Shown piece by piece: positions 5,201 to 52,965 of a DNA stretch of 64,000 nt; position 1 is the first letter of the stretch; every line of letters starts with the position of its first letter. The notes beneath the pieces were generated by a model, which saw only the letters and a list, made by a program, of their open reading frames with translations, made no database searches and was not told where the DNA came from. The stretch lies in the IMG/VR virus record IMGVR_UViG_3300046048_000227, positions 1-64,000 of that record; one strand, written 5' to 3'. Origin of the DNA: a virus. The position numbers and the translations under genes are program-made.

Positions 5201-5714
5201 ACTTAGACTAGGTAGGGTGCGTGTAACAACGCACCTTACCCATAGGAGATATAACATGTACTACACATTAGTATATTCATTTTGCAGGAAGGTTAGTACG
5301 TTGTACGTCATCGACGGAGAACTTACGTTTGATCAAGCCATAGACAAGTTAGATGAGATATTCTTAGCTTATACTAAGTGTGCTTGCTGTGGTGAGAGGT
5401 GGAAGTCTTGGCGAGTAAATAATCCTACCGAAGTAGTCAACATGACACATGTGCTACCCGCTAGCACTGTGGTCTATTACAGTGAGATAGGCAGGTTTGT
5501 TTTTGCGCGTCTTGTGCGCAAGGAGAGTGAAGAATGAACGAGTACATGATAGTACTACGACCCAACGGCAAACTAACACATATCCCAGGTGCACGAACAG
5601 CAACGTTTGTTGATCGTGTACTTGGGGGTGATTGGAAGGCTTGCCTATTAACACAAGCAGAGAGCGTAGAGCAAGCGAAGGTACGATTTGAGCAGGTGCA
5701 CAAGGAGCAAGATC

Positions 5715-6938
5715 ATGGATGAGATCATACTATGCCAAGTGAGTACGGAGTTGATACAGCCAATCAATACAACGCTGGAATACTATCAGCGCGCGTATGG
5801 CTATATGGACGGGTATCATATACCGTCCAAGCACTTCATGGAGATACCGCTATGGATTGCAGTGGTGGCAGGTAAGCTACATAAGTATACACCAAGATTA
5901 CACATCGTACAGAACGTAGAAGATACAGTGAAGTACCTGAACAAGCAAGACTCAGACGTACCAGTACTGTTTAGTGTGCTTGATGTGAACAAGCATATCA
6001 TTCGTAGCATAGTGGATGAGGTAGACAGTCGCAGAATAATCTTAGGCGGCTATGTAGACCCTGAGTACTTCTTGTTCTACGACAACGTAACGTGGTTAGA
6101 TAGTGTCGATGAACTGTCAGGTGAGTTCCAGTACTACGATCATGCCGCGGCACCAGATTACACACTATTCAAGTGGATGTGGACAGTGCCACGATTGACC
6201 TTGAGCAAAGGATGCCTGCATAGCTGTAAGTTTTGCAGTGTAGAGCGGGTGCTAACTAGCATGTCAACGCTGGAGATAAACCAGCAAGTGACAAACATGA
6301 GAGGACTCAACTTCAAGCTTATGTACATAGACGATAAGACGTTTGGGCAGTCGTCTAATTGGAGATTGCTACGTGCAATTTACGAGGAGATAATTGCCTA
6401 TAACCCTGAGTTTATGGGGTTCATTGTACAAACAACTGTACCCTACGCAGTGAAGTACATACGTGAGTGGGTGGAAGACTACCATGTACTGCACGTAGAA
6501 GTGGGCGTCGAAGTACCGAGCGACAAGTTTCTGGAAAAGATGAACAAGCCATACCGTATGAATAAGCTCAACAAATTGATAAATATAGTACGTGAGCTTG
6601 TACACATGGACGAGTACAAAGTAGGGTTCATTCCTAACCTGATCTTTGGTATGCCAGACGACGATTATGTATCCACGTACCGTTGGGTGCGTAGTTGTCA
6701 GGACATTATCAGCTTTGTTAATCCATACGTGCTAAGTTATTACTCAAATGCTAAAGGGGATATAATAGGCGATGAGCAAGAACGCGGTGCACAAGACAGC
6801 AACGAGAACACCACAGATAGAACGTGGCTGTCACCTATGGAGCAGAAATTAACCGAGGTGTTCATGTACAAAATACTCAACCACACATTACTCAATCTGT
6901 CATTACGAGCAGACGAGGTAGGCGTAAAAGTAGTGTAG
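5715..6938 (+). CDS. Radical SAM protein, probably with a degenerate B12-binding-like N-terminal domain
   Basis: CxxxCxxC (GCLHSCKFC), IILGG, YIDDKTF, GVE, LIFGMP motifs. Confidence 0.85.
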   Translation: MDEIILCQVSTELIQPINTTLEYYQRAYGYMDGYHIPSKHFMEIPLWIAVVAGKLHKYTPRLHIVQNVEDTVKYLNKQDSDVPVLFSVLDVNKHIIRSIVDEVDSRRIILGGYVDPEYFLFYDNVTWLDSVDELSGEFQYYDHAAAPDYTLFKWMWTVPRLTLSKGCLHSCKFCSVERVLTSMSTLEINQQVTNMRGLNFKLMYIDDKTFGQSSNWRLLRAIYEEIIAYNPEFMGFIVQTTVPYAVKYIREWVEDYHVLHVEVGVEVPSDKFLEKMNKPYRMNKLNKLINIVRELVHMDEYKVGFIPNLIFGMPDDDYVSTYRWVRSCQDIISFVNPYVLSYYSNAKGDIIGDEQERGAQDSNENTTDRTWLSPMEQKLTEVFMYKILNHTLLNLSLRADEVGVKVV

Positions 6939-9198
6939 TAACCTACCACCACAACATAACATAACCCTTAGTTACTGGAGGATAATATGGATGCTTACGT
7001 TAGGTGACATTATCGTAGAGCGTTTTGTCATAGAGAAAACAAAGCACATACGTCCAGCAGGAGAGTGAGACATGTTAGTATACAGATGGGAAGTAATCAC
7101 AGGAGAAGGGTGCTTTATGGCAGGAATTACCTCATGGTTTAGCAATAAATCACAGTACTTGTACCGTAAGTGGATGAGTACAGTCCACGACAAACTACCA
7201 TACCCGCACTATGTAAGTTGGCGAACACCACAAGGTAGGGATGTTCCGTCAGTAAACAGGTACTTCGATAAGGTGTGCCAGTACACGGCAGACTACACAT
7301 ACAGATATGCTTTTAGTTCTATGGAGCAACTACGTGAGTATATGCCTAAGAATTGGGATAAGTACCTGCTTGAGTTTGGTTGCCACCTAGTATCATACTG
7401 GGTGGATGCGGATGAGGAGGATGGGGGATTACTAGTATCCGACTCACAAGTGGTATTCCTAGAAGATTATGCAGAGTTTATCGAGGAGATAATATAATGA
7501 GTAGCGTATTCGATAGAATGGCAATGGAAGAACATGTAAGGGATGCTGGCACATGGTACGATGTGTACAGTGAGAGATATGCCAACGAACTTGTTGGCTT
7601 AGATGATGGTGAATACCCTGCTACCGTGGGTACTCCTGGCGCAGACGATGAATACTTCATGGAGGACTATGATGATGTGCACTGTGTGCACGGTGCATTC
7701 ATAGGATACCCTGGAGGGGCTGATTTTATGTGTGGTCTGTGTGAGAACGGACAGGTATTCCCAAAGCAGGATAGAAAGTGGGAGTTACACATATACGGTA
7801 GAATAGTATGGACAGTATACAAGCAGGAGGACACAGCAAAATGGGATAGTTTGATCGCCTTATGTAAGAAGGAGGACGTATCTTACAACATTATTCAGCA
7901 GGAATATACATGGTGGGACACGGAGGAATAGCATGACTAGTAAATTTCAGCCACTATTAGATGCAGTAAATGAGGGGCAGGCAGTGTTAGTTTCTAGCGC
8001 AGAATATGGACTGCCAACTATCCACGATGTAGGGCATAGCTTACAGACTAGCGGAGAAGTAGAGCACTGTGGGTTTGGTTGGTTTATTGCCCCAGTACTA
8101 GGGAGTTCTGTAACTTTCGATGGTGGTGGAGCTATGCTACGATCAAGTAATATTAGTTGGACACCACTACGAGTAGCTAACCAAGATCAGCTAGATTTCA
8201 TGGGCTATGATATTGATGAGGTTAAAACAACCTTAGAAAAATTAATAGCGGAGGATATATGAACAGCTATACAGTACTACTAACAGGAGATGATTATGAT
8301 GAAGTAACAGTCCTGCACATCACTACTGAATACTTTGTAGGTGTTGAAGATGTACCATACGATTGCAAAATACTCATTGGAGACACGACAATCGAAAGTG
8401 ATTGTGCGTCAATAGAGCTTATTAGGAACTACTAGGAGGCATAGCATGACTATATACATAGTGATAGTGTTCGTTGTACTAGTACTGGCATGGTGCATAT
8501 CGCGTCGAGTAACAAGGATTGACAAGCACCAACAACACATACGAAGTGAGAGGTTCTATCGCATGGTCGATAGAAGGGAGCAATAACATGTTTTACATAT
8601 TCGCTTACCACTTAACCAAGGAATATCCAAGCGTTATAGTAGAGGCAGGTAACAAAGAAAAAGCAGTTGAAGTTGCCTTGAATGCGGGTTGGTTAGATTT
8701 CAGTAGATGCTCTGGTTGTGGAGATGATCTCTGGGATTGTTATGATATTGGATACCCTGACCTAGAAACTGCCGCAAGGGTGGATAGTCGTCGTAACATG
8801 ATGCAAAGTCACGTTAGTATACTAGCAACTGATCGTGTCAATGCCACACAAGAGGAACTTGACAGGATGCGTGATACTGTTATGCAGTTAGGATACAGAA
8901 AGCATGTGCCTAGTGATGAAGACATTATAAACATGCTAGCGTCCATATTAGTGTACACCGAGAGTAAGGAGGTGCACGATGAATAGATGGAACACGCTTG
9001 CTGGTTTGGCAAACTATTGGGCGTCATCCTACGGTGAGATCGAGTGCCCAGGATGCGGATGTAAGCACGAGGTAGACTGGAATACAGAGTATGGTGAGCC
9101 TTATGACGGTAAGTATCTAGTCGAGTGCAAAAAGTGTAACAAAAAATTTGATGTGGTTGTAGAGACAATCACTACCTATACAGTAGAGGAGATAAAAC

Positions 9199-35767: not shown

Positions 35768-37270
35768 ATGAGCAATCATGCCGCTATAATTCGTGCCGCC
35801 AATGCGGGAAAACCCGTATTACGGCGAGGTAAGCATTTCATAGAATTTGACAATGGCGACAATACTAAAAGATGGGTATCAACCATTGAGCCGCTGCACT
35901 ATGGAATAGCCGAAGACCAAGAAATAGATACTGGATGGATTGCAGACACGGGCGCATGGCAATGGCAGAACATACTCAATAGCCATCTTATTCATGCACG
36001 TGATGTTTTCAATGTCGGCAACCTGTTCGAGTGGCGCATCGGTGACGAGTGGGTAATCATTGACCCGCAATCTATCAACTGGATTAATCAGGACACCAGT
36101 CGCCAACAGATAGCGATAAAGCAAGCTGCTAGTGGTGCTGTTGATGATGACCTGATGACCTTCACGGATGCTTACGGCTCTGGCATTCATTATGAATTAT
36201 TCGCACATCCTAAGCGACTGATAAAACACATTACGATTGACAGCTTCAGCGACCTTGCACCTGTTGAACCGTGGCTTACAGGGACAATCTGGTTTGAGGC
36301 TGAATTTACTATCTCAACTTCTGCTGGTGTTGAGATGTATCTTGATGATGTATTGTGGGAGAAAACAAACGGAGTTAGAGTACAGACTTCTAATCGGATT
36401 GAGTTTAGGGAAACAGCGACAGGAATAGTCGTATGGTATGCGGATGCGCCAAGTGCCACGGATGCCAACGGAGACACAATCTCGGCACAATACGAAGTTC
36501 GTAATCAAAGTGGAACATATTTTATTACTGTGCGTGTTCCTTATGGCTGGATGGAAACGGCAGTATATCCAGTCAAGATAGACCCGACCTTCACGGATGG
36601 TTATGGCGGGGATGTAAGCACTTATATTGATGCTTTTTTTGAATCTGGTCAGCCAGATACAAACTGGGATGAAACTTATCTACTGTATAACGTATTTAAC
36701 AGCCACAAAGTACTTTACTTTTTCGATGTTTCATCTTTGAGCGGTTATACAGTAAATAGCGCAACACTTTCTTTATATTTCCTTACTGATCCGCAAACCT
36801 GGACTGCCAATTATATTAATTTTTATTCTATATTATCCGCTAATGACGGATGGCTTGAAACTTGTACTTGGAACTATGCTGATGGTGCAGGTGCTTCCCA
36901 GAGATGGGCAGGTGATACTGGTAATGATGGTGGAGCGGATGCTGGTTGTAGTGTTAGTGGGACTGACTATAATGCAACTCCAATATTTACCTCTCCAGAC
37001 CTAGTAACATACGTAGCAGACGATGAATTGGCTTGTACACTTGTTACATCACAAGTTCAAGATTGGGTAGACGGAGACAATTACGGTATTGTATCTTTTA
37101 TAGACGCAGTTTTTGTGGATTTTTATTCATCTGACCACGCTACTACTGGATACCGTCCATTGCTAACGATTGATTACGATGCTGGTGGAGATTTTCCTTT
37201 CTCAGACAACTTTACAGGTACCCCTGGTGATCCTTGGGCTGCTGCTAACTGGACAACTAGTGTAGGCTAA
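35768..37270 (+). CDS. Virion-surface protein with DNRLRE-like beta-sandwich C-terminal half
   Basis: YPV.IDPT linker, D......PD.N, FFDVS, V.SATL.LY, VQ.W, RP.L.I.Y. Confidence 0.65.
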   Translation: MSNHAAIIRAANAGKPVLRRGKHFIEFDNGDNTKRWVSTIEPLHYGIAEDQEIDTGWIADTGAWQWQNILNSHLIHARDVFNVGNLFEWRIGDEWVIIDPQSINWINQDTSRQQIAIKQAASGAVDDDLMTFTDAYGSGIHYELFAHPKRLIKHITIDSFSDLAPVEPWLTGTIWFEAEFTISTSAGVEMYLDDVLWEKTNGVRVQTSNRIEFRETATGIVVWYADAPSATDANGDTISAQYEVRNQSGTYFITVRVPYGWMETAVYPVKIDPTFTDGYGGDVSTYIDAFFESGQPDTNWDETYLLYNVFNSHKVLYFFDVSSLSGYTVNSATLSLYFLTDPQTWTANYINFYSILSANDGWLETCTWNYADGAGASQRWAGDTGNDGGADAGCSVSGTDYNATPIFTSPDLVTYVADDELACTLVTSQVQDWVDGDNYGIVSFIDAVFVDFYSSDHATTGYRPLLTIDYDAGGDFPFSDNFTGTPGDPWAAANWTTSVG

Positions 37271-37345
37271 GCACGTTTTTAATACTATTCTTTACCTTTC
37301 GATTGTAGATATAGAAGACATGTACAATTACTTGGAGGTAAAGAC

Positions 37346-37720
37346 ATGAGTATAAGCAACTTTTTAGAAAATGAACTTCTCGATGCTGCTCTAGCTTTGG
37401 GCACTTACGTTTCCACAAACGTTTACGTAAGTTTGCACACAGCAGACCCTGGAGAAACAGGAACATCCGAAGTAACTGGTGGTAGCTACGGACGACAAGG
37501 GCCAGAGACTTTCGACGTTGCGGCTGCTGGTGCCTCTGCTAACAGCACCCAAATAGACTTCACTAGTATGCCTGCTGTCACAGTTTCCCACGTTGGTCTC
37601 TGGGACGCTTCTACTGGTGGTAACTTCCTGTGGGGCGGTGCTCTTGATACGTCAAGAACACTGAATGGTGGAGACACTTTCCGTATCGCCGTTGGCGACC
37701 TAGACGTAACTCTAGACTAA
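37346..37720 (+). CDS. Conserved small virion structural protein (tail fibre/head decoration-like)
   Basis: S..LE..LLD, SLHTADPGE.G..EV.GGSY.R, H.GLWDA.TGGNFL. Confidence 0.75.
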   Translation: MSISNFLENELLDAALALGTYVSTNVYVSLHTADPGETGTSEVTGGSYGRQGPETFDVAAAGASANSTQIDFTSMPAVTVSHVGLWDASTGGNFLWGGALDTSRTLNGGDTFRIAVGDLDVTLD

Positions 37721-38096
37721 TTATATAAGGTGGTCTACGCATGGAAAAGCTCCTGCTGTTTGCATTACAGTCGGAGCATTCTTTGCTTTAGGAGGAGATT
37801 GCTATGGCTGTACAGATTATAGAATTTTGGACAGATTTACTTGAAGATGCTGGTGTTACTTGGAACATAGAATTTCACATGCTAGTTAGACAAGCTAATG
37901 ATGATCTTGAGTGGCACTATTACGGCACTGATCCAGTAGCTGTACCACCTACTGGTATATATGCTGGAGAAACAATAATAGAATACGCAAGAGTGCAGTT
38001 TCCTTCTGGTTTTAATGACTTACCACAAGGTGAATCAGCACACCACTTGTACCAGCTTGGTAGATTAGCAGGAATGAATAGAGAAGGGCACTACTA

Positions 38097-39521
38097 ATGA
38101 CAGTTCGTTACGTTGGTAAGGGTGGAAGTGACTCCGCAGATGGGCTATCTTGGGCTAACAGGAAGTTAACACTAAACGGCGCAGAAGACTCCCCTGTAGT
38201 AGCTGGAGATATTATTTACGTTGGGCCTGGAGTTTATAGGGAAATGTTAACTTGTGACGTTAGTGGTACCGCTGGTAACTGGATAACTTATGTAGGAGAT
38301 GTTACAGGAGTCTACACAGATGGTATAGGAGAAGCTGTAACTATTACAGCTTCTGATGACGATATATCTGCTACAAGGTCAAGGGCTGTATATTTAAATG
38401 CCACGGACTACAGACGTTTTGAAGGTTTTACTATGTTTGCTGGTGTAAATGACTGTCTTAATGGCTATGATATAGTACACGCTCACTTAGAAAACTGTAC
38501 TTTTATGGGTAACGAATCAGCAACCGTAGAGCTAGTAAATATTAGAGGCCCCCTTGATGAAAATTTTTATGTTGGTGTCAAGAATTGTATATTTATTGGA
38601 GCAACAACACAACTAAAACTTTATTCAGACGCCCTTAACCAATTTATTTCTTATGAGGACGTAGAGAGTTGTCTTTTTATTGGTGGGAGAGGAGGAGGAA
38701 CAACTACTTATGGTATTTGGTTCCAGCATTATGACGACTTTACAGCAAAAAACTGTACCTTTATTGGACTTGACCGCGCTGTGAGTTTCCAAAATTTAGA
38801 CGTAAGTATTGGCGGCGGAAGGGTATATAATTGTTTGTTTGATAATAACGGCACTGCTTTGTACTCTGACGGTACTGGAGCAGGTACAAAAGTAATTGAA
38901 AATTTCAATAATGTATCAGACACTAACGAAATAGCTAGAACAAATATTAATACTGGCTCAGATTCAGTAGCGTATGCTACCTTATATAGCTCTCCAATAC
39001 TACACGAGGCATTAGCAAGATTTCCTTGGCTGTATGGAGAGCTACTAAGCAGGTCTTCTTTTACAAGAAGAACGGGGACTGCAGCGGATTATGCAGCCAA
39101 CGATCTCTACGATATAGTAAGACCAACTACTAATGCAAAAAGGTCTTGGGGTGCCTTTCAGTTTCAAGAAATTGAAAGAGAAACAACTACAGTACACGAT
39201 AGTTCAGTAGCTTCTATTAAACTACCAGATGCTGCTAGACACCAGATATTTTTACCAGTAAAAAATAGCAGTACAACAATTTCTGTTTACTGCTACCGTG
39301 AAACTAATTATGCTGGCACTCTTCCTCAGTTAGTGGTCAAAGAACCAGGACAATCAAGTAGAACAGACACAGATACTGGAAGTTCTGGCGTTTGGAACCA
39401 GTTATCAATTAATTTTACTCCAGCCGTTAACACTAACTTCGTAGTAGTAGAGTTGGTAAGCAACAACACAGCTATAAGCGGCAGCTATGCTGCATTTTTT
39501 GACACATTGGGAGTATCTTAA
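38097..39521 (+). CDS. Right-handed beta-helix protein, paralog 1
   Basis: YV...G.D...G.SW, GD..YVGPGVYRE, repeated xNCxF. Confidence 0.8.
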   Translation: MTVRYVGKGGSDSADGLSWANRKLTLNGAEDSPVVAGDIIYVGPGVYREMLTCDVSGTAGNWITYVGDVTGVYTDGIGEAVTITASDDDISATRSRAVYLNATDYRRFEGFTMFAGVNDCLNGYDIVHAHLENCTFMGNESATVELVNIRGPLDENFYVGVKNCIFIGATTQLKLYSDALNQFISYEDVESCLFIGGRGGGTTTYGIWFQHYDDFTAKNCTFIGLDRAVSFQNLDVSIGGGRVYNCLFDNNGTALYSDGTGAGTKVIENFNNVSDTNEIARTNINTGSDSVAYATLYSSPILHEALARFPWLYGELLSRSSFTRRTGTAADYAANDLYDIVRPTTNAKRSWGAFQFQEIERETTTVHDSSVASIKLPDAARHQIFLPVKNSSTTISVYCYRETNYAGTLPQLVVKEPGQSSRTDTDTGSSGVWNQLSINFTPAVNTNFVVVELVSNNTAISGSYAAFFDTLGVS

Positions 39522-40912
39522 TGACTACTTATTACGTAGGTAAAGGCGGAGATAACGCCAACAATGGAACAACTTGGGCACTTAGAAAACTTACTTTAAA
39601 TGGTGCTGAGGACATACCAGTAACTTCAGGTGACGTTGTTTATGTAGGCCCTGGTGTATATAGAGAGCAGTTAACACTAGATGTTTCTGGAACAAGTACA
39701 ATAGAGTACATAGGGGATGTTACTGGAGCAAACACAGATGGTATAGGAGGGGAAGTAGTAATATCTGGATCAGATAATGATCAAACAACAACTAGAAACT
39801 ACGGAATATGGGGCATTTCTAAAAATAATAGATCATTTACTAATTTTTGTTTCGAAATGCACGGAAGTATATCTATTACTTCAGATGATTCAGATGATTT
39901 TGTTATAAAAAACTGTGTATTTCGTGGTTATGACGACTATGCTACGGGTGGTGCTATATTCTCTGGTGTTGGTTCTGGTTATACAATTCTTGTATCTAGC
40001 TGCGCTTTTATTGGGGTAGGTGCAGCAGTTGTATTTTCTTCAATAAGCTCTGTTGATCTTACTTCTCCTAGCGGAGTTAATAATTGCGTGTTCATTAATA
40101 CTTCAACAAACACTACAAGAAGCTCAATAAAATTTACTAATGTAGGTGGTGCCACAGTAAAAGGTTGTACTTTTTTTGGTGCTCTTCGAGGAGTAGAAAC
40201 TTCTGCAAGTATAAACTCATCTATAACTGTTATTGATTCTGTGTTCTTAGGCGTTGGATATGCTATGATAGCTGGAACTTCTGGAGACCTGACAGAAGAT
40301 TATAACAGTATTTTTGATTGCGAAGTACCAAGAACTTTAGTATTTACTGGATCAAATTCAGACGAAAAGCCTTTATATCCAAAAGAACCAATTCTTTCAG
40401 GCGGTTATAAGTTTCCTAATAATATATTGTTTCTGTCCCAACTAAGTACTATAAAAGACGTAGGTGTTAACTCCTCTTCTCTACCTATAGATTTATTTAG
40501 TTTAACAAGACCAGTAACAGATTCTAAAAAATCAAGAGGAGCAGTACAATTCAATAATTCTCCTACAAGAGAAACGACTACTACTCACGGAAGCTCTGCT
40601 GCTTCCATAAAACTTACCGACGCTCACAGGCACCAAATATTTGTGCCTGTTTCAGCAGAAAGCACTACAATTACAGTGTATTGCTACCGTGAGACTAACT
40701 ATGCTGGTACACTACCTCAAATGGTGATTAGAGAGCCTGGACAAACAGCAAGAACAACCACAGACACAGGCAGTTCAGGTGCTTGGAACCAATTAAGCGA
40801 TACTTTCACTCCTTCTGGAGATACAGATTATGTAATTGTAGAATTAGTAAGTAACAACACAGCAACAAGCGGAGATTACGATGTGTTCTTTGATACTATG
40901 GGAGACTTGTAA
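39521..40912 (+). CDS. Right-handed beta-helix protein, paralog 2
   Basis: Same N- and C-terminal blocks as paralog 1; repeated xxCxF. Confidence 0.8.
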   Translation: MTTYYVGKGGDNANNGTTWALRKLTLNGAEDIPVTSGDVVYVGPGVYREQLTLDVSGTSTIEYIGDVTGANTDGIGGEVVISGSDNDQTTTRNYGIWGISKNNRSFTNFCFEMHGSISITSDDSDDFVIKNCVFRGYDDYATGGAIFSGVGSGYTILVSSCAFIGVGAAVVFSSISSVDLTSPSGVNNCVFINTSTNTTRSSIKFTNVGGATVKGCTFFGALRGVETSASINSSITVIDSVFLGVGYAMIAGTSGDLTEDYNSIFDCEVPRTLVFTGSNSDEKPLYPKEPILSGGYKFPNNILFLSQLSTIKDVGVNSSSLPIDLFSLTRPVTDSKKSRGAVQFNNSPTRETTTTHGSSAASIKLTDAHRHQIFVPVSAESTTITVYCYRETNYAGTLPQMVIREPGQTARTTTDTGSSGAWNQLSDTFTPSGDTDYVIVELVSNNTATSGDYDVFFDTMGDL

Positions 40913-41133
40913 TGAATTTTGATAAGTGGGTTAATGGAGTGCCCTTCTTTACAGCATACCCTAACGATCCAGCAATAAGTCCTGTTACCTTTGATGTGCC
41001 TATCTTAGGGAATATGACTTTTCTTGATATCCCACTACAATCTATTATAAGAACATATCCATTCACAGACGCCTACACAGGTACAACAGGAGACCCATGG
41101 AATGTGGAAAAATGGGATATAACTTCGGGATAA
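40912..41133 (+). CDS. Small protein ending in the shared PF.D..TG..GDPW....W motif
   Basis: TAATG coupling; C-terminus matches those of the 35768 and 42032 proteins. Confidence 0.75.
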   Translation: MNFDKWVNGVPFFTAYPNDPAISPVTFDVPILGNMTFLDIPLQSIIRTYPFTDAYTGTTGDPWNVEKWDITSG

Positions 41134-41138
41134 TATAA

Positions 41139-42035
41139 ATGGCAACCAGATTCTATTTACCTTTAAGCGGAACAGCGGCAGTATCTCCATCTTATAGCAA
41201 TCAAGCTTGGGGAGATACAACTATTGCTGCGCGACATGCGGCGGTAACTACTAGAATTAACTCTACTATGACCGACGTAGAGTTTCCAGATGATGGGGAC
41301 GATACCGATAAGGATATTCTGGTTAGACAACACGTATCTGACCCAATAGCCGCTCAAACTATTTCTGCACAAACTATAAAATTCCAAATACGGGGAGCGG
41401 AACCGTTTTCTGTAAATAATTTGTACACCTCTATTGCCATATATGTTGTTTCAAATGATGGCTCTACTGTTCGTGGTGTTATTTTATCTCTATCTAGAGA
41501 CACCAGTGAGCTTGCTTTATACTTAGAAAACAGGCAATTCTCAGCAACATCCTCTCAAGTAGTAGCACAATCTGGTGATCGCATAATAATTGAAACAGGT
41601 TTTGGTGGTAATCCCAATAATAACCAAGACCATGCTGGTACTCTCAGCTACGGTGATGATAGCACTACTGACCTAGGAGAAAACAATACTGATACTGCCG
41701 CTTACAATCCTTGGGTTGAGTTTGCTAACACTCTGGACTTTGTTGGTACTGCTACATTTGCCTTTCCTGAAGTGGATGGATTTGTGACGATAAACTGGAA
41801 TAAGACTTCTCTTCTGCTAAATAGCATTAACTGGGACGTGAACAGTACTGGGTCTCTCAAGATATTGATGGAAAATGCTGGCACTCCAATTATCGACCTG
41901 GACATTACGTGCCCTAATACCGACAGCGAGGCTATACCTGGAACTTATAATCTAGAAAACTATAACGACCCCGATAAAGGGGAACGGTTGAGATGGCCTA
42001 CTGACCTTGTCTTCCTCGTGAGTATGCAATCATGA
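41139..42035 (+). CDS. Putative virion structural protein
   Basis: T/S/D-rich, beta-type composition, within structural module. Confidence 0.65.
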   Translation: MATRFYLPLSGTAAVSPSYSNQAWGDTTIAARHAAVTTRINSTMTDVEFPDDGDDTDKDILVRQHVSDPIAAQTISAQTIKFQIRGAEPFSVNNLYTSIAIYVVSNDGSTVRGVILSLSRDTSELALYLENRQFSATSSQVVAQSGDRIIIETGFGGNPNNNQDHAGTLSYGDDSTTDLGENNTDTAAYNPWVEFANTLDFVGTATFAFPEVDGFVTINWNKTSLLLNSINWDVNSTGSLKILMENAGTPIIDLDITCPNTDSEAIPGTYNLENYNDPDKGERLRWPTDLVFLVSMQS

Positions 42036-44347
42036 CAATAGAGAACGGATACTTTATATACAGTGAGAACGACACTACTCACGATTTAACTGTCACAGTC
42101 TCAAGTAATAGCGACAGGATATTGGATATTCAGATCATTGTATACGGTGGGGATTATTTATCTAGTGTTGTGCTAGACCCAGGTGGAAATGACGAGGTTG
42201 CACTAGAGTTGCAATCTGGTAATGATGGTGTGGCTTTCTACGGGTCTACCTACTATATAATTAATGCAACTCCTGGAGCAGGTCAAACGCTTAGAGTAAT
42301 AACATCTTCTTCCTGTGATGTGCTTATCTCTGTGCTAGATTTGTCCAACATGGACACAACCGCTATTGAAAATGGCTATGCTGTTGGAACTGGCACTACC
42401 AATGCTCCAACAGTATCATTTTCTACTACCGAAGATGGCGGTCATGTTCATAGTGCGTTTATATCTCAAGCAAATTCCGGTGCAGGAGTAGGAACGTGGA
42501 GCGGGGTAACTGGGCAAACAACCTTAGATGCAACCGACCAAGGACTCGACCAAACAGGTAGTGCCTATGCTACGCAAACCAGTGCGGGTACTATCACTAT
42601 GAACTACTCAACAACACAAACTGATAACTGGTTGTGTATCGGCACAGCATGGGCAGTTTCATCTGGGCCGGCAGTAGTAACAGGAACAGCTACTTTATCT
42701 GGTACAGGTACATTAACTGCTGCTGGAGATCGAGTACCTATTGTATCTACTGGTTCCGCTACACTAACAGGAACAGGTACGTTAACTGCTTCTGGCGATA
42801 GAGTAATAGTTATTTACACTGGCTCTGTTACAATGAGTGGTATTGGAGCATTAAACGCCACAGCAATAGCCATAAACACAGGATCAGCTACTTTAGCTGG
42901 TACTGGCACATTAGCTGGTATAGGTATAGCATTAAGCTTTGGTACAGCTACGCTTACTGGAACAGGTACATTAACAGCGGCTGGTGAAGCAATATCTGCT
43001 GTAATTACTGGCTCCGTAACCATGGCTGGAACTGGCACTCTAGCTAGCGCAGGCGTGCAGCTAACTACCGAAGTAGTCATTGGCGAAAACAATAATGGTT
43101 ATATCTCTGCTTTGCCTGGAGAGTATGGTAGAGCTATAAGTAGTATGGCAGACACACAAGATGTAATGCTAACCTACTCTCTACAATTCTCAGATACTGG
43201 TGGTTCTTTCTTGCATAGAACGTTCTTAAGGGCTTCTGGAGACTGGGCAGCGGCAACATTGCCTACTACTGGTGTAGAATTTGAGATCGACAACGTTAAC
43301 GGTACCGTAGATATCTATAATATAACTACTGGTTCTAGATCAGCGTCACAAGCCAACGGTACCTACACAAATGATACTGTTCTTAAACAAGTTAAGATAG
43401 AAGTAGCTGGTACTACTGCTAGAATAAAAATTTGGAATGACGGTAGCGCAGAACCTGGAACTTGGGCTGCTACATGGTCTTCAGCACCACAAAACTCTGG
43501 TACTTTACAGCTTGGGCTATGGTCTACCACAGACTGGCACAAAATAACTATAGACGATGTACTAGCCACGTATCCAGCAGTTACTGGTTCAGTAACCATG
43601 GCCGGTACTGGTGCCTTGACTGCCTCAGCTATAGGAATTTCAAGCAGCACAGCTACGTTAGCTGGACAAGGAACATTGACAGCAACAGCGATAGCTGTAA
43701 GTAATGGTACTGTCACTTTATCTGGTACAGGCACGATTATAGCCGCTGGTTCTGTAATTGGTATCTTGCTAGGAACTGCTACACTGTCAGGAACTGGCAC
43801 GCTAACTGGTACTGGTATTGCTTTAAGCTCTGGAACCGTAACATTAACAGGTACTGGTACTCTTACAGCAGCAGGAGATATAGCTACTGCCATAGAAACA
43901 GGTTCAGCTACATTGTCTGGTACTGGTGTATTAACTGGTATTGGTATAGCCATAAGCAATGGTACAATTACTATGTCTGGAGCGGGTACTTTAACAGCTT
44001 CAGGAATAGGTATTGCTAATGGCACAGCTACGCTAACAGGTACAGGTACTTTAACTGCTTACGGAACTGTTCCTGCTGGAATAGAGACTGGTAGTGCTAC
44101 TCTTGTAGGTACTGGGGCACTAACAGGAATAGGTATTGCTATCTCCTTTGGTACAGCTACCTTAACTGGTGCAGGTACTTTAACAACAAGCAGCTTGGCT
44201 ATAACTACAGGAGCAAGCACATTAACAGGAGTAGGCACACTTACAGCAACAGGGCAGGGAGCTTATCCGTTCCCATTCTTTGATGATTTTACTGGCGTAA
44301 CAGGCGATCCACTAGACAGCACTAAGTGGACACAGGCGGTAACATAA
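42032..44347 (+). CDS. Thr/Gly/Ala-repeat fibre-like protein with one ConA/LamG-like domain
   Basis: ~21-24-aa GTATLSGTGTLTA repeats; domain at ~43060-43575. Confidence 0.8.
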   Translation: MTIENGYFIYSENDTTHDLTVTVSSNSDRILDIQIIVYGGDYLSSVVLDPGGNDEVALELQSGNDGVAFYGSTYYIINATPGAGQTLRVITSSSCDVLISVLDLSNMDTTAIENGYAVGTGTTNAPTVSFSTTEDGGHVHSAFISQANSGAGVGTWSGVTGQTTLDATDQGLDQTGSAYATQTSAGTITMNYSTTQTDNWLCIGTAWAVSSGPAVVTGTATLSGTGTLTAAGDRVPIVSTGSATLTGTGTLTASGDRVIVIYTGSVTMSGIGALNATAIAINTGSATLAGTGTLAGIGIALSFGTATLTGTGTLTAAGEAISAVITGSVTMAGTGTLASAGVQLTTEVVIGENNNGYISALPGEYGRAISSMADTQDVMLTYSLQFSDTGGSFLHRTFLRASGDWAAATLPTTGVEFEIDNVNGTVDIYNITTGSRSASQANGTYTNDTVLKQVKIEVAGTTARIKIWNDGSAEPGTWAATWSSAPQNSGTLQLGLWSTTDWHKITIDDVLATYPAVTGSVTMAGTGALTASAIGISSSTATLAGQGTLTATAIAVSNGTVTLSGTGTIIAAGSVIGILLGTATLSGTGTLTGTGIALSSGTVTLTGTGTLTAAGDIATAIETGSATLSGTGVLTGIGIAISNGTITMSGAGTLTASGIGIANGTATLTGTGTLTAYGTVPAGIETGSATLVGTGALTGIGIAISFGTATLTGAGTLTTSSLAITTGASTLTGVGTLTATGQGAYPFPFFDDFTGVTGDPLDSTKWTQAVT

Positions 44348-47300
44348 TGGCACAATTTGGTCGTCCAGATGCAGACATTACCACAACTAACTGGGGAATA
44401 ACTCCTTTATTTTCAAAAATAAATGAAGTAAGTCCTTCAGAGCTTGATTACATCACTGCGGTAGCTAACGCAACAGCAACCGCAGAAGTTGGCTTACCTG
44501 ATCTGGACGACCCTACTTCTTCTAGCTTACATACAATTAGATTTAGAGCAAGAGCAGAGAAAACTAATAAGGCGGCACTGTTAACAACATCTTTGGTGCA
44601 AGGTACTACCATAATAGGATCGTTAGTACTGGACGCAGAAGTAGACATGACAACAAGCTTTGCGTCGTACTCCTTTACACTAACTAGCGGAGAAGCTGAC
44701 AACATAACAGACTATACAGACTTGCGCTTACGTTTTGAACAAACAACTGCTACAGCAGGTAACTTTGTGGAAGTTTCTTGGGCTGAGTTTGAGATACCAG
44801 ATGCCATTGTTATTCATACAGGCACAGTAACTATGTCTGGTACTGGTGCGTTATCTTCAGGCAGCACAGTAATACCAGGAACTACAAAGTCTGGATCAAC
44901 TACGTTAGTGGGTACTGGTGCACTGTCTGCTGCTGGCATACGAATAGGCACAGAAGCAGCAATTAATGCAAATGCGGGAAGGTTATTTGTCCTTACTGAT
45001 AGCAATTATGTACGTGCTAGAGCCTACGTAGAGACTACCCACAGTGACTACGAAGTAAACCACACTCTACAATTCTCTGATATTACTGGTGCTTACATAT
45101 ATAGGGTTTACGTGCGTGCTTCAGACGATTGGGCAGACAGTGATAAACCAACTACTGCTGTTGAGTTTGCTATAGACCCTGTAAACGGCACTATTAATAT
45201 ATATAACATTACAAGTGGTTCTCGTGGAGCATCACAAGACAGTGATACTTTTACAGCAAACACTAACTTAAAGAATTTACGCATCCAATGTGACGGTACT
45301 ACAGTACGGGCTAAAATTTGGGAAGGCTCAGAACCTGCAACTTGGAATGTATCTTGGTCTTCAGCACCAACTAACAACGGTGTTGTACAAATAGGTCTTT
45401 GGTCTACTACAGGACAGCACTATGTAGACTTAGATGATTTTGACGTTGACGATGTACAAGGAGCAGTGTCTGGTTCTGTCACAATGTCTGGCACAGGAAC
45501 ATTATCTGCTTCAGGAATAGCTATAAGTAGGGGAACTGCTACATTAACAGGCACTGGTGCGCTAACTACTGTTGGTTTGGCTATAAGCAATGGCACAGCT
45601 ACACTCTCTGGCACAGGCACATTAACTGCCGCAGGAGATAAGGTTGCAGTTATCTATACTGGCACAGTTACCATGTCTGGTTCTGGCGTGCTAACTAGTG
45701 TTGGTATAGCAATTAGTTCAGGCACTGTAACATTCTCAGGAACAGGCGCATTAACTGGTATAGGTATAGGAATTGCCTCATCAACAGCTACTTTGGCTGG
45801 TATAGGAACGCTGGCTAGCACAAGTCTGGCGATCTCAAACGGTACCGCAACTCTTAGTGGAGTAGGTACACTGTCTGCTGCTGGAGATGTAGCGTCTGTC
45901 ACTTCCTACGGCACTGTAACTATGTCAGGCACTGGTGCATTAAGTGCTTCAGCTATAGCTACCTCTTTTGGAACAGCCACACTAAGCGGGGCAGGAACGC
46001 TAGCTGCAATTGGTTTGGCTATTTCCTTGGGCACAGCTACACTTTCAGGCGTAGGTACATTGTCTGCACAAGGCACAGTAGGCGGAGTAGTAGAAGGCAC
46101 TGTAACTATGACAGGGACAGGAGCACTTTCTGCTTCAGCAATTGCTATCAGCAACGGAACTGCTACATTAGCTGGTATTGGCGCATTAGACGCCATAGGC
46201 ATAGCTATAGCTAACGGCACAGCTACGCTATCAGGTGCTGGTGCTTTAACTGCCTTTGCTACAACGTTTGCAGTAGGAAAAGCAACGCTATCAGGTACTG
46301 GAGCGTTATCTGCTACAGCTATAGCGATCTCCACAGGCACAGCTACACTAGTAGGAACTGGAACTCTATCCGCTAGTGGTACAGTAGGTGGAGTAATCTC
46401 TGGTACTGTTACCTTAGCTGGCACTGGAACTATAACAGCTTCAGCTATAGCTATAAGTTCAGGAACTGCTACCCTAAGTGGTACAGGTACGCTAACTGCT
46501 ACTGGAGATAGGGTAGCTGCTATACATACAGGCACTGTTACTATGTCGGGCACTGGTGCTCTGTCTACATTTGGACTCCAGCTAACTAACGAGATTATAA
46601 TTGACGGGAACAGGGCAAAGATCGCCGCTCTTGCTGGTCACTACGGAACACTGATCACTAAGATGGATGATCAAGAACAGGACTACGTAACTACGTATTT
46701 CCTACAATTCTCCGATACTGACGGTGCCTACGTTCACAGGCTATTTGTACGTGCCTCTGCTGATTGGGCAGCAAGTGACCGACCAACAACAGGTATTGAG
46801 TTTGAATTTGACAACACAGACGGTTCAATCACTATATATAATATTGTAGCTGGTGTTCGCTCTGCTTCTCAAGACACAGGCACATTCACAAATAACACTA
46901 ACCTGAAACGTGTTAAGATAGAGAATGACGGCACAACAGTTAGGGCTAAGATATGGGATGATGGCTCCGGCGAACCTGGAACATGGGATGTATCATGGTC
47001 TTCCGCTCCACAGAACGCAGGAGTAACACAAGCTGGTCTATGGTGCACAACTGGTTGGCACTCTATCCACCTAGACGACTTTAACGTATCTTACTTAGCA
47101 ATTACTGGCTCTGTTACTATGTCAGGGACTGGTACATTAACTGCCTCTGCTAGCACAGACGCTTACGCAACAGCTACATTAGCTGGAGTAGGTACACTAA
47201 ACGCAATAGGAATAGCTATTAGTAGTGGAACTGCTACACTAAGTGGCACTGGTACAATTACTGCTTCTTCTATAGCGATCTCTAACGGCACAGCCGCACT

Positions 47301-48579
47301 AACAGGTCTTGGTACCATAACAGCTTACGGTACTGTTGGTGGTATAGTTACTGGTTCAGCTACTTTAGCTGGTACGGGCGCACTAACAGCTACAGCAATT
47401 TCTATAACTAATGGAACCGCTACCATAACTGGTCAAGGAACTTTAACAGCCACAGGTGATGTAGTAGAAGTAGTTGTATACGGCACAGTAACAATGTCTG
47501 GGGCTGGAACACTAACTGCTACAAGCATAGCTATTTCCTTGGGCACAGCTACACTAAGCGGTGTAGGTATCCTTACAGCATATGGTACTGTTGGTGGGAT
47601 TGTTTCTGGTACCGTAACATTATCAGGAAATGGTGCGCTAACAGCTATAGCTATAGCTATCTCCACAGGTACAGCTACTATAGCAGGTACTGGCACATTA
47701 ACTGCACACGCCAACATAGATGCAGTAGCTAGTGCTACCCTAACAGGTGCTGGTAGTCTAACAGCACATGCCAACATAGATGCCCTAGGAAAAGCAACTT
47801 TGTCTGGTATTGGTGCTATATCTTGTTACGGAGAGATAGCTGGACAAGCGTGGGGTAGGGCCATACTGTCTGGAACAGGAAATATCACTGCTTCTGCTAA
47901 CATAGACGCAGTAGCTAGTGCCACACTTTCAGGTACTGGTACTTTGTCTGCCTCTGCTATAGCTATAAGCAGCGGAACAACCACACTAACTGGTAACGGT
48001 GCTTTAACGGCGACTGCAATAGCTATTTCCAGCAGCACAGCCACGTTATCAGGTGTTGGTACACTTACTGCTAGTGGTACAAACTTCTCCATACTGTACG
48101 GTACTACTACATTCATAGGAACTGGATTACTTACTGCTGTTGGCATAGCAATAAGCAGTAGTTCAGCAATATTAACTGGTACTGGTACACTTACTGCCTC
48201 TGGTATAGCTCTGTCCTATGGTACTGCTACACTTGTTGGTGCTGGCGATCTAACAACTTCTAGCATAGCTATATCCTACGGCACTGCTGTACTAACAGGA
48301 TTAGGGACTATTACAGCACACGCCACACTAAAAATGTGGGGTACTGCTACACTTTACGGTATTGGTAATCTGTATGTAACCATTACAGAATTTATGTCAA
48401 TACCTATCTACGCAGACGCCATAGTAAGCAACTTAATTAATAGATCAGCTAGGTTAAATTCCTTTATTGATGCTGACGCTGAAATGTCTGATGTAATTAA
48501 CGTAGATAACGTTAAGGTTAACGATACGATTGTAGTAGATGCAGAGATCATGGAAGAAGACAAAGACATTTACTTCTAA
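44347..48579 (+). CDS. Very long (~1410 aa) Thr/Gly/Ala-repeat fibre-like protein with two ConA/LamG-like domains
   Basis: Dozens of repeats; domains at ~44950-45455 and ~46580-47097; TAATG coupling. Confidence 0.8.
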   Translation: MAQFGRPDADITTTNWGITPLFSKINEVSPSELDYITAVANATATAEVGLPDLDDPTSSSLHTIRFRARAEKTNKAALLTTSLVQGTTIIGSLVLDAEVDMTTSFASYSFTLTSGEADNITDYTDLRLRFEQTTATAGNFVEVSWAEFEIPDAIVIHTGTVTMSGTGALSSGSTVIPGTTKSGSTTLVGTGALSAAGIRIGTEAAINANAGRLFVLTDSNYVRARAYVETTHSDYEVNHTLQFSDITGAYIYRVYVRASDDWADSDKPTTAVEFAIDPVNGTINIYNITSGSRGASQDSDTFTANTNLKNLRIQCDGTTVRAKIWEGSEPATWNVSWSSAPTNNGVVQIGLWSTTGQHYVDLDDFDVDDVQGAVSGSVTMSGTGTLSASGIAISRGTATLTGTGALTTVGLAISNGTATLSGTGTLTAAGDKVAVIYTGTVTMSGSGVLTSVGIAISSGTVTFSGTGALTGIGIGIASSTATLAGIGTLASTSLAISNGTATLSGVGTLSAAGDVASVTSYGTVTMSGTGALSASAIATSFGTATLSGAGTLAAIGLAISLGTATLSGVGTLSAQGTVGGVVEGTVTMTGTGALSASAIAISNGTATLAGIGALDAIGIAIANGTATLSGAGALTAFATTFAVGKATLSGTGALSATAIAISTGTATLVGTGTLSASGTVGGVISGTVTLAGTGTITASAIAISSGTATLSGTGTLTATGDRVAAIHTGTVTMSGTGALSTFGLQLTNEIIIDGNRAKIAALAGHYGTLITKMDDQEQDYVTTYFLQFSDTDGAYVHRLFVRASADWAASDRPTTGIEFEFDNTDGSITIYNIVAGVRSASQDTGTFTNNTNLKRVKIENDGTTVRAKIWDDGSGEPGTWDVSWSSAPQNAGVTQAGLWCTTGWHSIHLDDFNVSYLAITGSVTMSGTGTLTASASTDAYATATLAGVGTLNAIGIAISSGTATLSGTGTITASSIAISNGTAALTGLGTITAYGTVGGIVTGSATLAGTGALTATAISITNGTATITGQGTLTATGDVVEVVVYGTVTMSGAGTLTATSIAISLGTATLSGVGILTAYGTVGGIVSGTVTLSGNGALTAIAIAISTGTATIAGTGTLTAHANIDAVASATLTGAGSLTAHANIDALGKATLSGIGAISCYGEIAGQAWGRAILSGTGNITASANIDAVASATLSGTGTLSASAIAISSGTTTLTGNGALTATAIAISSSTATLSGVGTLTASGTNFSILYGTTTFIGTGLLTAVGIAISSSSAILTGTGTLTASGIALSYGTATLVGAGDLTTSSIAISYGTAVLTGLGTITAHATLKMWGTATLYGIGNLYVTITEFMSIPIYADAIVSNLINRSARLNSFIDADAEMSDVINVDNVKVNDTIVVDAEIMEEDKDIYF

Positions 48580-50669: not shown

Positions 50670-51146
50670 ATGAAGTGCCCACACTGCGGAAAAGATATAT
50701 GTAAACTCAATTACAAAGAGTGTATTGAGTGTGGTAAAACTATTGTTGAGTTTGAAGGTTACTACTTCAAATCCTCTCCAATAATTGCAATCCTTGAACA
50801 CTTTGAAAAATTAGTATCTAGGCACTTAAGTAAAGAAACCAACGAAAAAATAATCTTTAGAGTTAAAAGAAAAGGTCTCATGTGGCGGTATGAATGTGCT
50901 AGGGCTAAGCAACTGTTAGCAGAAGCAGACTACGATCTTGACCTACTACTTGAAACACTAACTTATTTGTCTGAAAGCAATAAATATTCCTGGAGATTTA
51001 AAGATACCCTTGGTGCCGTCCTGCCTATGATAAATGCAGGCATATCTATTATCAAATCCAAACGGGATAGAGAGGCACTGAAAGAAGAGAAGGCTAAAGT
51101 ATTTGACAGCTACCTAGATGAGAGAGGCGATATATTAAATGTTTGA
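50670..51146 (+). CDS. Hypothetical protein with N-terminal Cys motifs, coupled to the polymerase gene
   Basis: CPHC...CIEC; overlaps polA start; TGTGGTAAAAT upstream. Confidence 0.7.
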   Translation: MKCPHCGKDICKLNYKECIECGKTIVEFEGYYFKSSPIIAILEHFEKLVSRHLSKETNEKIIFRVKRKGLMWRYECARAKQLLAEADYDLDLLLETLTYLSESNKYSWRFKDTLGAVLPMINAGISIIKSKRDREALKEEKAKVFDSYLDERGDILNV

Positions 51147-52965
51147 TGATTTCTCTATACCAGACTTTCCGCATACTATAATCACAGACCCAGACAAAGT
51201 TAGTGAACAGTTCATCCAAAAGGTAGGAAGGCAACCACTCCTATCTTTTGACTTTGAAACTACTGGACTACACTTTAAAAAACATAAAGCTGCGGGAATA
51301 GCTATAGCTAATCAAGAGCACGCTTGGTACATACACGATAAGGCTATGCACCAGCTAACGCCGTGGTTGAAAGATAATTTTGTTGACTCAAACATAACAT
51401 GGGCGGCACACAATTCAATCTTTGATATGCACTTTCTTAAAAATGATTTTAATGTACTGCCTGCTTCGCTAGTAGATACACAGCTTGCCCAGTGGATGTT
51501 AAACGAAGAAGACTCACTTGCCTTGAAAGAAGTTTCCAAGTTCAAACTTGGGATCACTGAAAACTTACCTTCCTTTAGAGACCTACAAAAACATGCTAAA
51601 GAACTACGGGATATTAAAAAAATTGATGATGTATCTATTTTTGATATTCCAGTAGAAATGCTAGGAATATACGCCGCATTTGACGGAAGACTAACCTTTG
51701 ACTTATGGAATAAATTAGAAGGCGAGTTAGAAGCTGAAGGACTAAGAGAAGTCTATGATGAAAACATTATACCGTTTACCTATGTTCTCCTAGACATGGA
51801 AGATCGTGGTGCTTACATAGATCGTGATAGAGTAATAGAACTTAAGGATCAGTACGAGGAAATAGCCGATGATCTTTTAACAAAATGGAAAAAGAAAGTA
51901 GGCGACGTTAATCCAAACTCTCCCCAACAGCTAAGGGAACTCCTGTACACTCAAATGAACTTGAGAACAAGCAGGAAAACCAAGAAAACAAAGCTTCCCT
52001 CAACAGACTCTCTCGCCTTACTGCGCCTTAAAAGAAATGATAAAACAGGTATTGTATCTTTGCTAATAGAGTACAAAGAATATAACAAACTAATAAGTAC
52101 GTACCTAACACCACTGCTAAACAAAACTATTGACAACTATATATATACTAACTTCAAACAAACTGGCACTGTAACAGGGCGACTTAGTTCTAGTGGTGAT
52201 ATCAATCTACAAAACATTCCTAGCCGTACAGAAATAGGAAAAGAAATCAGATCATGTTTTATCGCTCCGCCAGGAAGATCATTATTGGTTACAGACTATT
52301 CGCAAATTGAACTACGAATTTTAGCACACTATACTAGAGATGAAAATCTAGTAAGAGTATTCTACTGGGGAGAAGACCCGCACCAATTAACAGCTAACAA
52401 AATGGGAGTACCTAGATACGTTGGCAAAACTCTTAACTTTGGTATTATCTATGGAGCACAAGCACGGACAATAGCTGATCAGATTGAGAAAATTCCTAAG
52501 CCAAGACCTAAAGAATCTGTAGCAAGGAAATGGTTATTAGACTTTGAAAAAATTATCTACCCTTCAATCCCTAAATGGAAAAAGACTGTTATAAATACCG
52601 CTATTCAGCAAGGGTACATAACTACGATTGGGGACAGGCACAGACACGTAACTAACCTGGATCATTATGATGAGTACACTAGAGGACGGGCAGAAAGACA
52701 GACTATTAACAGCTTAATTCAGGGCAGTGCAGGAGATTTTATTAACCAGTCAATGTTATCATCTAGCAACACTGCTAAAGAACTGGATATTTGGTACCAC
52801 ATTCAGGTACACGATGAACTGGTTACAACCTGCCCAACAGAATTGCTAGATGAAGCTAGCAGATTTATGCAAACCAGCATGGAGTCTATGAGAGAAGTAT
52901 TCAACCTATCAGTTCCTATTTTAGCACAGCCTGCTACAGGCGCAAACTGGATGGAGTGCAAATGA
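51139..52965 (+). CDS. polA: Family A DNA polymerase (3'-5' exonuclease plus polymerase, no 5' nuclease)
   Basis: DFETTGL, HN..FD, YAA.D, TGRLSS, DYSQIELR, K.LNFGIIYG, QVHDEL. Confidence 0.97.
   Translation: MFDDFSIPDFPHTIITDPDKVSEQFIQKVGRQPLLSFDFETTGLHFKKHKAAGIAIANQEHAWYIHDKAMHQLTPWLKDNFVDSNITWAAHNSIFDMHFLKNDFNVLPASLVDTQLAQWMLNEEDSLALKEVSKFKLGITENLPSFRDLQKHAKELRDIKKIDDVSIFDIPVEMLGIYAAFDGRLTFDLWNKLEGELEAEGLREVYDENIIPFTYVLLDMEDRGAYIDRDRVIELKDQYEEIADDLLTKWKKKVGDVNPNSPQQLRELLYTQMNLRTSRKTKKTKLPSTDSLALLRLKRNDKTGIVSLLIEYKEYNKLISTYLTPLLNKTIDNYIYTNFKQTGTVTGRLSSSGDINLQNIPSRTEIGKEIRSCFIAPPGRSLLVTDYSQIELRILAHYTRDENLVRVFYWGEDPHQLTANKMGVPRYVGKTLNFGIIYGAQARTIADQIEKIPKPRPKESVARKWLLDFEKIIYPSIPKWKKTVINTAIQQGYITTIGDRHRHVTNLDHYDEYTRGRAERQTINSLIQGSAGDFINQSMLSSSNTAKELDIWYHIQVHDELVTTCPTELLDEASRFMQTSMESMREVFNLSVPILAQPATGANWMECK

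Follow-up and report, generated by a model that had tools for sequence, protein, structure and literature searches.

Why should three different proteins of one phage end in the same short peptide, while three lectin-like domains in the neighbouring fibre proteins lack the beginning of their fold? The question was raised by an earlier note on the first 64,000 nucleotides (the window) of the IMG/VR virus record IMGVR_UViG_3300046048_000227, which has 101,694 bases. The note had proposed that the first strand of each domain is supplied in trans by one of the peptides. Below, the peptides are called tails (T1, T2 and T3) and the headless domains sockets (D1, D2 and D3; Table 1). Tails and sockets were complementary in sequence and in fold, the complementarity was conserved, and tails and sockets occurred together in other genomes. 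Comparative evidence gives good support to the reading of both as parts of one split domain, which would be a new form of strand complementation in the assembly of phage fibres.

Complementarity of tails and headless domains

Three plus-strand open reading frames (ORFs), of 500, 73 and 771 amino acids (aa), shared the C-terminal peptide, and each stopped at a TAA codon. The peptide was ~24 aa long, carried two conserved tryptophans and followed the motif [FY]PFxDx[FY]TGxxGDP[WL]-x4-W-x5-stop. T1, T2 and T3 were mutually 36–42% identical over 50 aa. The sockets were each ~174 aa long. Among the residues invariant in all three were LQFSD, RAS.DWA, PTT..EF, R.KIW, EP.TW, GLW.TT, DD and the start E..I...N, as the earlier note had listed them. 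Scanned for the motifs in all six frames, the entire genome yielded exactly three tails and three domains, confirming the 3:3 count on which the note had relied. Read-through of the stop codons, or frameshifting into a downstream domain, was considered and rejected: all three stops are TAA and no frame downstream continues the domain.

A profile search against 1.84 billion representative proteins yielded 532 homologues of the domain. In most of the top homologues the tail motif, in the form F.DDFTG..G..W...KW, stood directly before the domain in the same chain. Among 134 strong domain copies, 97 were intact, with this head in cis, and 37 were headless. Intact homologues with the peptide fused N-terminally, for which the earlier note had suggested a search, therefore exist. 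The second head tryptophan was invariant in 45 intact homologues and was kept by every tail.

An intact-domain profile, built from 41 intact homologues only, was then searched against 3148 six-frame ORFs (from the genome and from two related loci, L002 and L023, described below) and three added database proteins. The tails fell on profile states 3–24 and the sockets on states 27/30–200, with no overlap or gap, and the tail alignments ended one or two residues before the stop. The expectation values (E) were 9e-5 and 2e-4 for two of the tails, 8e-3 (domain E) for the third, and 1e-32 to 1e-35 for the sockets. Only the tails, the sockets and the three added proteins scored, the next best ORF having an E of 0.73. 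Sequence similarity gave no indication of the pairing between individual tails and sockets.

Neither a PHROG match nor a PDB sequence match was obtained for the domain, and the 771-aa and 1410-aa proteins and ten homologues had no Pfam match at the gathering threshold, whether to Laminin_G_3 (PF13385) or to other lectin and carbohydrate-binding module (CBM) families. AlphaFold2, given D1 alone and a 51-row alignment, returned a confident model with 13 strands (predicted local distance difference test score, pLDDT, 94.4). The model superposed on CBM66 (4azz_A; Z 17.5, root-mean-square deviation 2.6, 149 aligned residues), on ERGIC-53 (Z 17.3) and on legume lectins (Z ~17). D1 as modelled is thus a lectin sandwich of the ConA-like kind, with CBM66 and ERGIC-53 as its closest structural matches, in agreement with the ConA/LamG type assigned by the earlier note.

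D1 did not have the full strand set: it had 13 strands, versus 15 in the model of the intact homologue P0041 (pLDDT 94.5), two of which lay in the head (head pLDDT 95–98). P0041 matched CBM66 4azz_A with a Z of 20.4. Residues 1–207 of P0041 aligned to ERGIC-53 residues 44–268, and its alignments began at residue 2 of the legume lectins and at residue 7 of CBM66. The alignments of D1 began only at residue 16 of CBM66 (4azz_A 16–165), residue 20–22 of the legume lectins and residue 71 of ERGIC-53. By the profile states, the strand counts (15 vs 13) and the alignment starts, the cut in the phage domain falls cleanly after strand 2, with the two pieces encoded apart. The tail corresponds to the first two strands and their loop (~24 aa), not to one strand. 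The idea of a first strand supplied in trans was thus supported in that the sockets lack exactly the N-terminal segment that the tails match, but the segment is larger than had been proposed.

Conservation and co-occurrence in other genomes

Co-occurrence was assessed with searches keyed on the tail alone, using a terminal-tail DNA pattern and a tail-start pattern. In the metagenome collection the terminal-tail pattern gave one real match, the locus L023; the other three of its four matches were due to chance. On this 3-kb metagenome contig, a repeat fibre contains an embedded headless socket (E 3.5e-44) and a tail protein is encoded two genes upstream, a ratio of 1:1. The full form of the tail protein, P0152, has 330 aa, a tail and no socket. 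The tail-start pattern gave one real match in IMG/VR (L028): a 319-aa protein with a tail at its end, whose gene overlaps the next one, for a 1219-aa protein with a headless socket. In the full record of this locus (G001, 92 kb, rated 100% complete), a tail and a headless socket are each present exactly once. In P0002, P0019 and P0015, whose repeat families are unrelated, a single headless socket is combined with a single terminal tail. Tail and socket counts match in these relatives, the outcome that the earlier note's proposal called for: 1:1 in the complete 92-kb genome, on the 3-kb contig and within the three proteins.

The 92-kb genome also has, at G001:C1:16500-19565 (locus L034), a gene order nearly that of the window, with a small MATRF... 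protein, a tail-bearing cargo protein and a fibre composed of an N-domain, repeats and a socket. This fibre has GIxTAExFG-type repeats, which are also known from minor tail proteins of actinophages.

Other searches returned little. The strict terminal-tail pattern had no match in IMG/VR and one chance match in GTDB genomes. A pattern for heads in cis or in trans found only cis heads and chance matches in IMG/VR, and IMG/VR scans with A3, P0019 and P0022 found nothing. Against phage records, tblastn gave no match for D1 or for the homologue P0022, megablast gave none for the module around the tails and sockets, and P0015 matched Microcystis phage Mwe-JY26 in tblastn through its repeats only. 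Matches to the pattern FPFxE[DN]FTG were discarded as an unrelated protein family with no profile match. The loci L017/L018, with a cis tail-like head in a DSQ-repeat fibre, were not used as an argument from fusion, the body matching only profile states 3–75.

In total nine terminal tails were found: T1, T2 and T3, those of P0002, P0019, P0015, P0154 and P0152 (the latter being gene A of L023), and the tail of the 92-kb genome. Residues were counted in eight of them, with the tail of the 92-kb genome outside the count. All eight detached tails started with [FY]PF, versus none of 41 cis heads, and the tail of the 92-kb genome also starts with FPF. DP[WL] was present in 7/8 detached tails versus 6/41 cis heads. 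The stop codon lay five or six residues past the second tryptophan in 9/9 tails, from at least six lineages. Between this phage and L023, the tail was 71% identical, the N-domain of the 771-aa protein (compared with that of P0152) 53% and the socket 37%, while the intervening repeats were wholly replaced. Judged by these comparisons of sequences, the detached tails are a distinct, selected class and not debris.

The headless sockets also grouped together. In a FastTree phylogeny of the 134 domain bodies, 33 of the 37 headless copies fell in one group (support 92). Labelling the tree as intact or headless required five changes, versus a mean of 32 when labels were shuffled, and none of 500 shuffles was as low. 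The four headless outliers were N-terminally cut records or second copies. By their sequences, headless sockets are essentially one lineage, and they are present in dozens of protein clusters.

The same clade includes a family of ~450-aa proteins that end in a headless socket (alignment A4: P0008, P0009, P0012, P0020, P0022 and others). About 25 residues upstream of the socket these proteins have a conserved YPR[IL]MGxR, which might be a diverged cis head.

The accessory fibre module and its cargo

Beyond 64 kb, the minus strand of the record encodes a portal, a head protease, a major head protein and a 1401-aa tape measure protein; the virus is therefore a long-tailed phage, not a podophage. 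The tails and sockets belong to a separate accessory fibre module on the plus strand, at 35.7–48.6 kb (Table 1).

Table 1 Tails, sockets and genes of the accessory fibre module, in positions of the window.
Feature	Position	Strand	Basis
Tail T1, FPFSDNFTGTPGDPW-x4-W-x5	37193..37267, TAA to 37270	+	Intact-domain profile states 3-24, E 9e-5
Tail T2	41056..41130, TAA to 41133	+	Intact-domain profile states 3-23, E 2e-4
Tail T3, FPFFDDFTGVTGDPL-x4-W-x5	44270..44344, TAA to 44347, overlapping the ATG of the next gene (TAATG)	+	Intact-domain profile states 3-24
Socket D1, headless ConA-like domain, 13 strands, in the 771-aa fibre	43055..43576	+	AlphaFold2 pLDDT 94.4; profile states 29-197
Socket D2, in the 1410-aa fibre	44938..45459	+	47% identical to D1; profile states 30-200, domain E 1.8e-34
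Socket D3, in the 1410-aa fibre	46576..47097	+	59% identical to D1; profile states 28-199, domain E 4.5e-32
500-aa cargo protein, CBM96-like C-terminal half, ends in T1	35768..37270	+	ORF; ESM Atlas neighbours
124-aa Gp80-like 'bead' protein of chain-like fibres	37346..37720	+	Pfam PF23140, E 1.3e-34; PDB 8JOU chain a, E 4e-13
Two paralogous genes (474 and 463 aa)	38097..40912	+	45% identical; only family signal a weak DUF5123 match
73-aa protein: 45-aa unique N-terminal part and T2	40912..41133	+	ORF with Shine-Dalgarno sequence and TAATG coupling
298-aa protein	41139..42035	+	N-terminal ~200 aa = head domain fused in the relative P0002 to a socket-and-tail fibre
771-aa fibre: N-domain, 20-23-aa GTG repeats, D1, more repeats, T3	42032..44347	+	ORF and profile
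1410-aa fibre: N-domain, GTG repeats, D2, repeats, D3, repeats; no tail	44347..48579	+	ORF and profile

The genes of the module are tightly coupled: start and stop codons overlap as TAATG at 39521, 40912 and 44347, and as ATGA at 42032. The first two of these overlaps couple the 474-aa and 463-aa paralogues to each other (39521) and to the 73-aa gene (40912), which in addition has a GGGAGA Shine-Dalgarno sequence. A search for homologues of the 73-aa protein with 40–128 aa found none. This protein could be an adaptor of the two paralogues to a socket.

The cargo carried by the tails is varied, comprising a CBM96-like protein, two Laminin_G_3 domains and several N-domains. The CBM96-like example is the 500-aa protein, whose C-terminal half had CBM96 (PF24517) clusters as ESM Atlas neighbours (score 0.93, template modelling score 0.62–0.73); the two Laminin_G_3 domains are followed by the tail in P0154. 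A homologue of the 500-aa protein, 57% identical over residues 1–480, is encoded at L002 (IMGVR_UViG_3300025313_000198, 4258–7845). Instead of ending in a tail, it runs on into ~25 copies of a 23-aa repeat, a fibre fused in cis. By its sequence, this fusion looks like the covalent version of the joint proposed below. P0155, whose repeats are of the GTG type, is another covalent counterpart: the domain occurs three times in this fibre, each time intact.

The 298-aa protein was 65% identical to P0002 over 274 residues, and nearly identical over the first 200. As their sequences indicate, the relatives clearly shuffle modules: in P0002, a socket-and-tail fibre bears the N-domain of the 298-aa protein.

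Elsewhere, at 5688–32916 and 51139–52965, the window encodes a radical SAM protein, an ArdC-like metallopeptidase, a DNA methylase, an NKWYS-like protein, RtcB and a family A DNA polymerase.

Proposed docking, its alternatives and known systems

We infer that the tails physically dock in the sockets. From the sequence comparisons, completion of the sockets in trans is probable, and with it the attachment of cargo to rope-like fibres. Each tail would insert into a socket as strands 1–2 and restore the 15-strand sandwich, so that the accessory fibre system would be joined at split ConA-like lectin domains, as by plug and socket. The CBM96-like protein of 500 aa, the 73-aa adaptor and also the 771-aa fibre would in this way be held non-covalently by sockets. 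The tails would go to D2 and D3 of the 1410-aa fibre and to D1 of the 771-aa fibre, although the tail of the 771-aa protein may instead serve its own socket or that of a second copy. Docking would also give mechanical sense to the fixed stop, because at that position the chain of an intact domain runs straight into strand 3; in a complex, this is where the chain of the fibre itself would come in.

Several points weigh against docking. AlphaFold2 folds D1 alone with high confidence, therefore a 13-strand domain could be self-sufficient. The earlier note had counted complete folding without the peptide as a refutation; the confident model of D1 alone does not bear on how stable the domain is without its tail. 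About a dozen headless sockets, in the ~450-aa family, are without a known partner tail, and they could be stable alone or be completed by the segment upstream. The co-occurring examples all share ancestry, in one headless clade, and so document conservation, not independent origin. The lineage result itself comes from FastTree, with a support of 92, and from a homologue set that was seeded with headless sockets.

If the sockets were complete, self-sufficient lectin domains, perhaps with the edge filled by strands of the preceding repeats, the tails would do something else. They might bind another partner, such as the N-domain of the next gene product or the Gp80-like bead, or be leftovers of truncated domains. 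The model of D1 alone and the many headless sockets with no known tail partner fit this explanation, as does the position of each tail gene, directly before a gene that opens with a globular domain. We nevertheless consider it improbable. The tails keep exactly the most conserved residues of the cis heads, and their stop is fixed across nine tails and at least six lineages. Searches that used only the tail still led to headless sockets, and leftovers would not hold 71% identity while the flanking sequence is replaced. Far less credible still is that the shared peptide is a DNA-level recombination joint for the shuffling of fibre modules, with no role in protein assembly. Modules are clearly shuffled, as in the P0002 fibre with the N-domain of the 298-aa protein and in the fusion of the 500-aa module to a fibre at L002. 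However, at 36–42% identity over 50 aa the tails are conserved at the protein level, and a recombination joint would explain neither the headless domains inside the fibres nor the fixed stop.

A closer contender, though still an unlikely one, accepts completion of the sockets but confines part of it to single proteins. Where socket and tail are on one chain (the 771-aa protein, P0002, P0019 and P0015), the tail would complete the socket of the same protein. A single chain could fold back on itself, which would amount to a circular permutation with a long insert of repeats; two chains could exchange tails reciprocally as an antiparallel dimer; or chains could join head-to-tail into a daisy chain. 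Both sockets of the 1410-aa protein would then be left to T1 and T2, the only tails acting between different proteins. One socket and one tail per chain do recur in three repeat families, and assigning T3 to D1 leaves a balance of two tails without sockets and two sockets without tails. On the other hand, 230–360 repeat residues separate socket and tail, which would put the tail far from its own socket if the repeats are extended or rope-like. Furthermore, P0152, an orthologue at the N-domain of the 771-aa protein, has a tail but no socket, the socket being on another protein, and the same holds in the 92-kb genome. Completion in trans remains the reading that we prefer.

If the tails do dock, a compact 24-residue tag would suffice to attach any protein to the fibre, and it would become clear how phages exchange binding modules while leaving the fibre gene as it is. 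A lectin-fold example would be added to strand complementation, a principle known mainly from pili, and the annotation of many 'hypothetical' fibre genes would gain a guide. The pair would also offer a natural split domain for protein engineering and, in laboratory strains, for retargeting the host range of phages. We are more doubtful about a broader form of the proposal, which we put forward tentatively: that phages widely use the FPF...DPW tail with the headless lectin socket as a natural tag-and-catcher pair for interchangeable cargo, undescribed in print, and that proteins with both socket and tail polymerise head-to-tail like pilins. Full-text literature searches on strand complementation in phage fibres returned no description of such a split-lectin arrangement.

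In chaperone-usher pili, the pilins are immunoglobulin-like, lack their C-terminal strand and receive an N-terminal extension as donor, a process that requires a chaperone and an usher. The analogy drawn by the earlier note holds for the principle, an incomplete beta-sandwich completed by a strand of another polypeptide, which could likewise allow head-to-tail chains. It does not extend to the parts: the fold here is that of a lectin missing strands 1–2, a C-terminal tail would act as donor, and neither Pfam nor PHROGs scans detected a chaperone or usher domain among the module's ten proteins.

D1 and the intact homologue share their fold, at a sequence identity of only 10–18%, with ConA-like domains of the CBM66, ERGIC-53 and legume-lectin type, among them receptor-binding domains of phages. 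Two such mycobacteriophage fibre domains, the C-terminal domain of TM4 gp23 (9n6a) and the central fibre protein gp20 of phage Douge, matched the intact homologue (Z 19.3–19.5). The solved ConA-like examples are all complete, single-chain domains, whereas the domain is split here.

Branching in the T5-like phage DT57C (LtfA/LtfB) and in the hyperbranched phiKp24 is based on folded N-terminal anchor domains and is not known to involve a split domain. These fibres resemble the proposed system in presenting several receptor-binding modules on one fibre scaffold.

Close parallels exist with the podophages A1002 and GP4 (PMC13730344; PDB 8JOU). In A1002, cryo-electron microscopy showed that strands missing from the nozzle protein gp42 are supplied by gp39, and that dimers of the fibre bead beta-augment a rope protein, with about 20 aa per dimer (PMC13730344). 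There, as proposed here from sequences and models, separately encoded structural proteins of a phage complete each other's beta-sheets. A Gp80-like bead (PF23140) is also encoded at our locus, and the 20–23-aa fibre repeats are close to the spacing of the docks on the rope. The fibres may, as a lead and not a finding, be ropes decorated by Gp80-like bead dimers as in GP4/A1002. The systems differ in that this phage has a 1401-aa tape measure and is not a podophage. They differ further in the fold that is split, here a ConA-like lectin sandwich and not a beta-propeller or platform, and in the donor, which here would be a detachable C-terminal tag on varied cargo.

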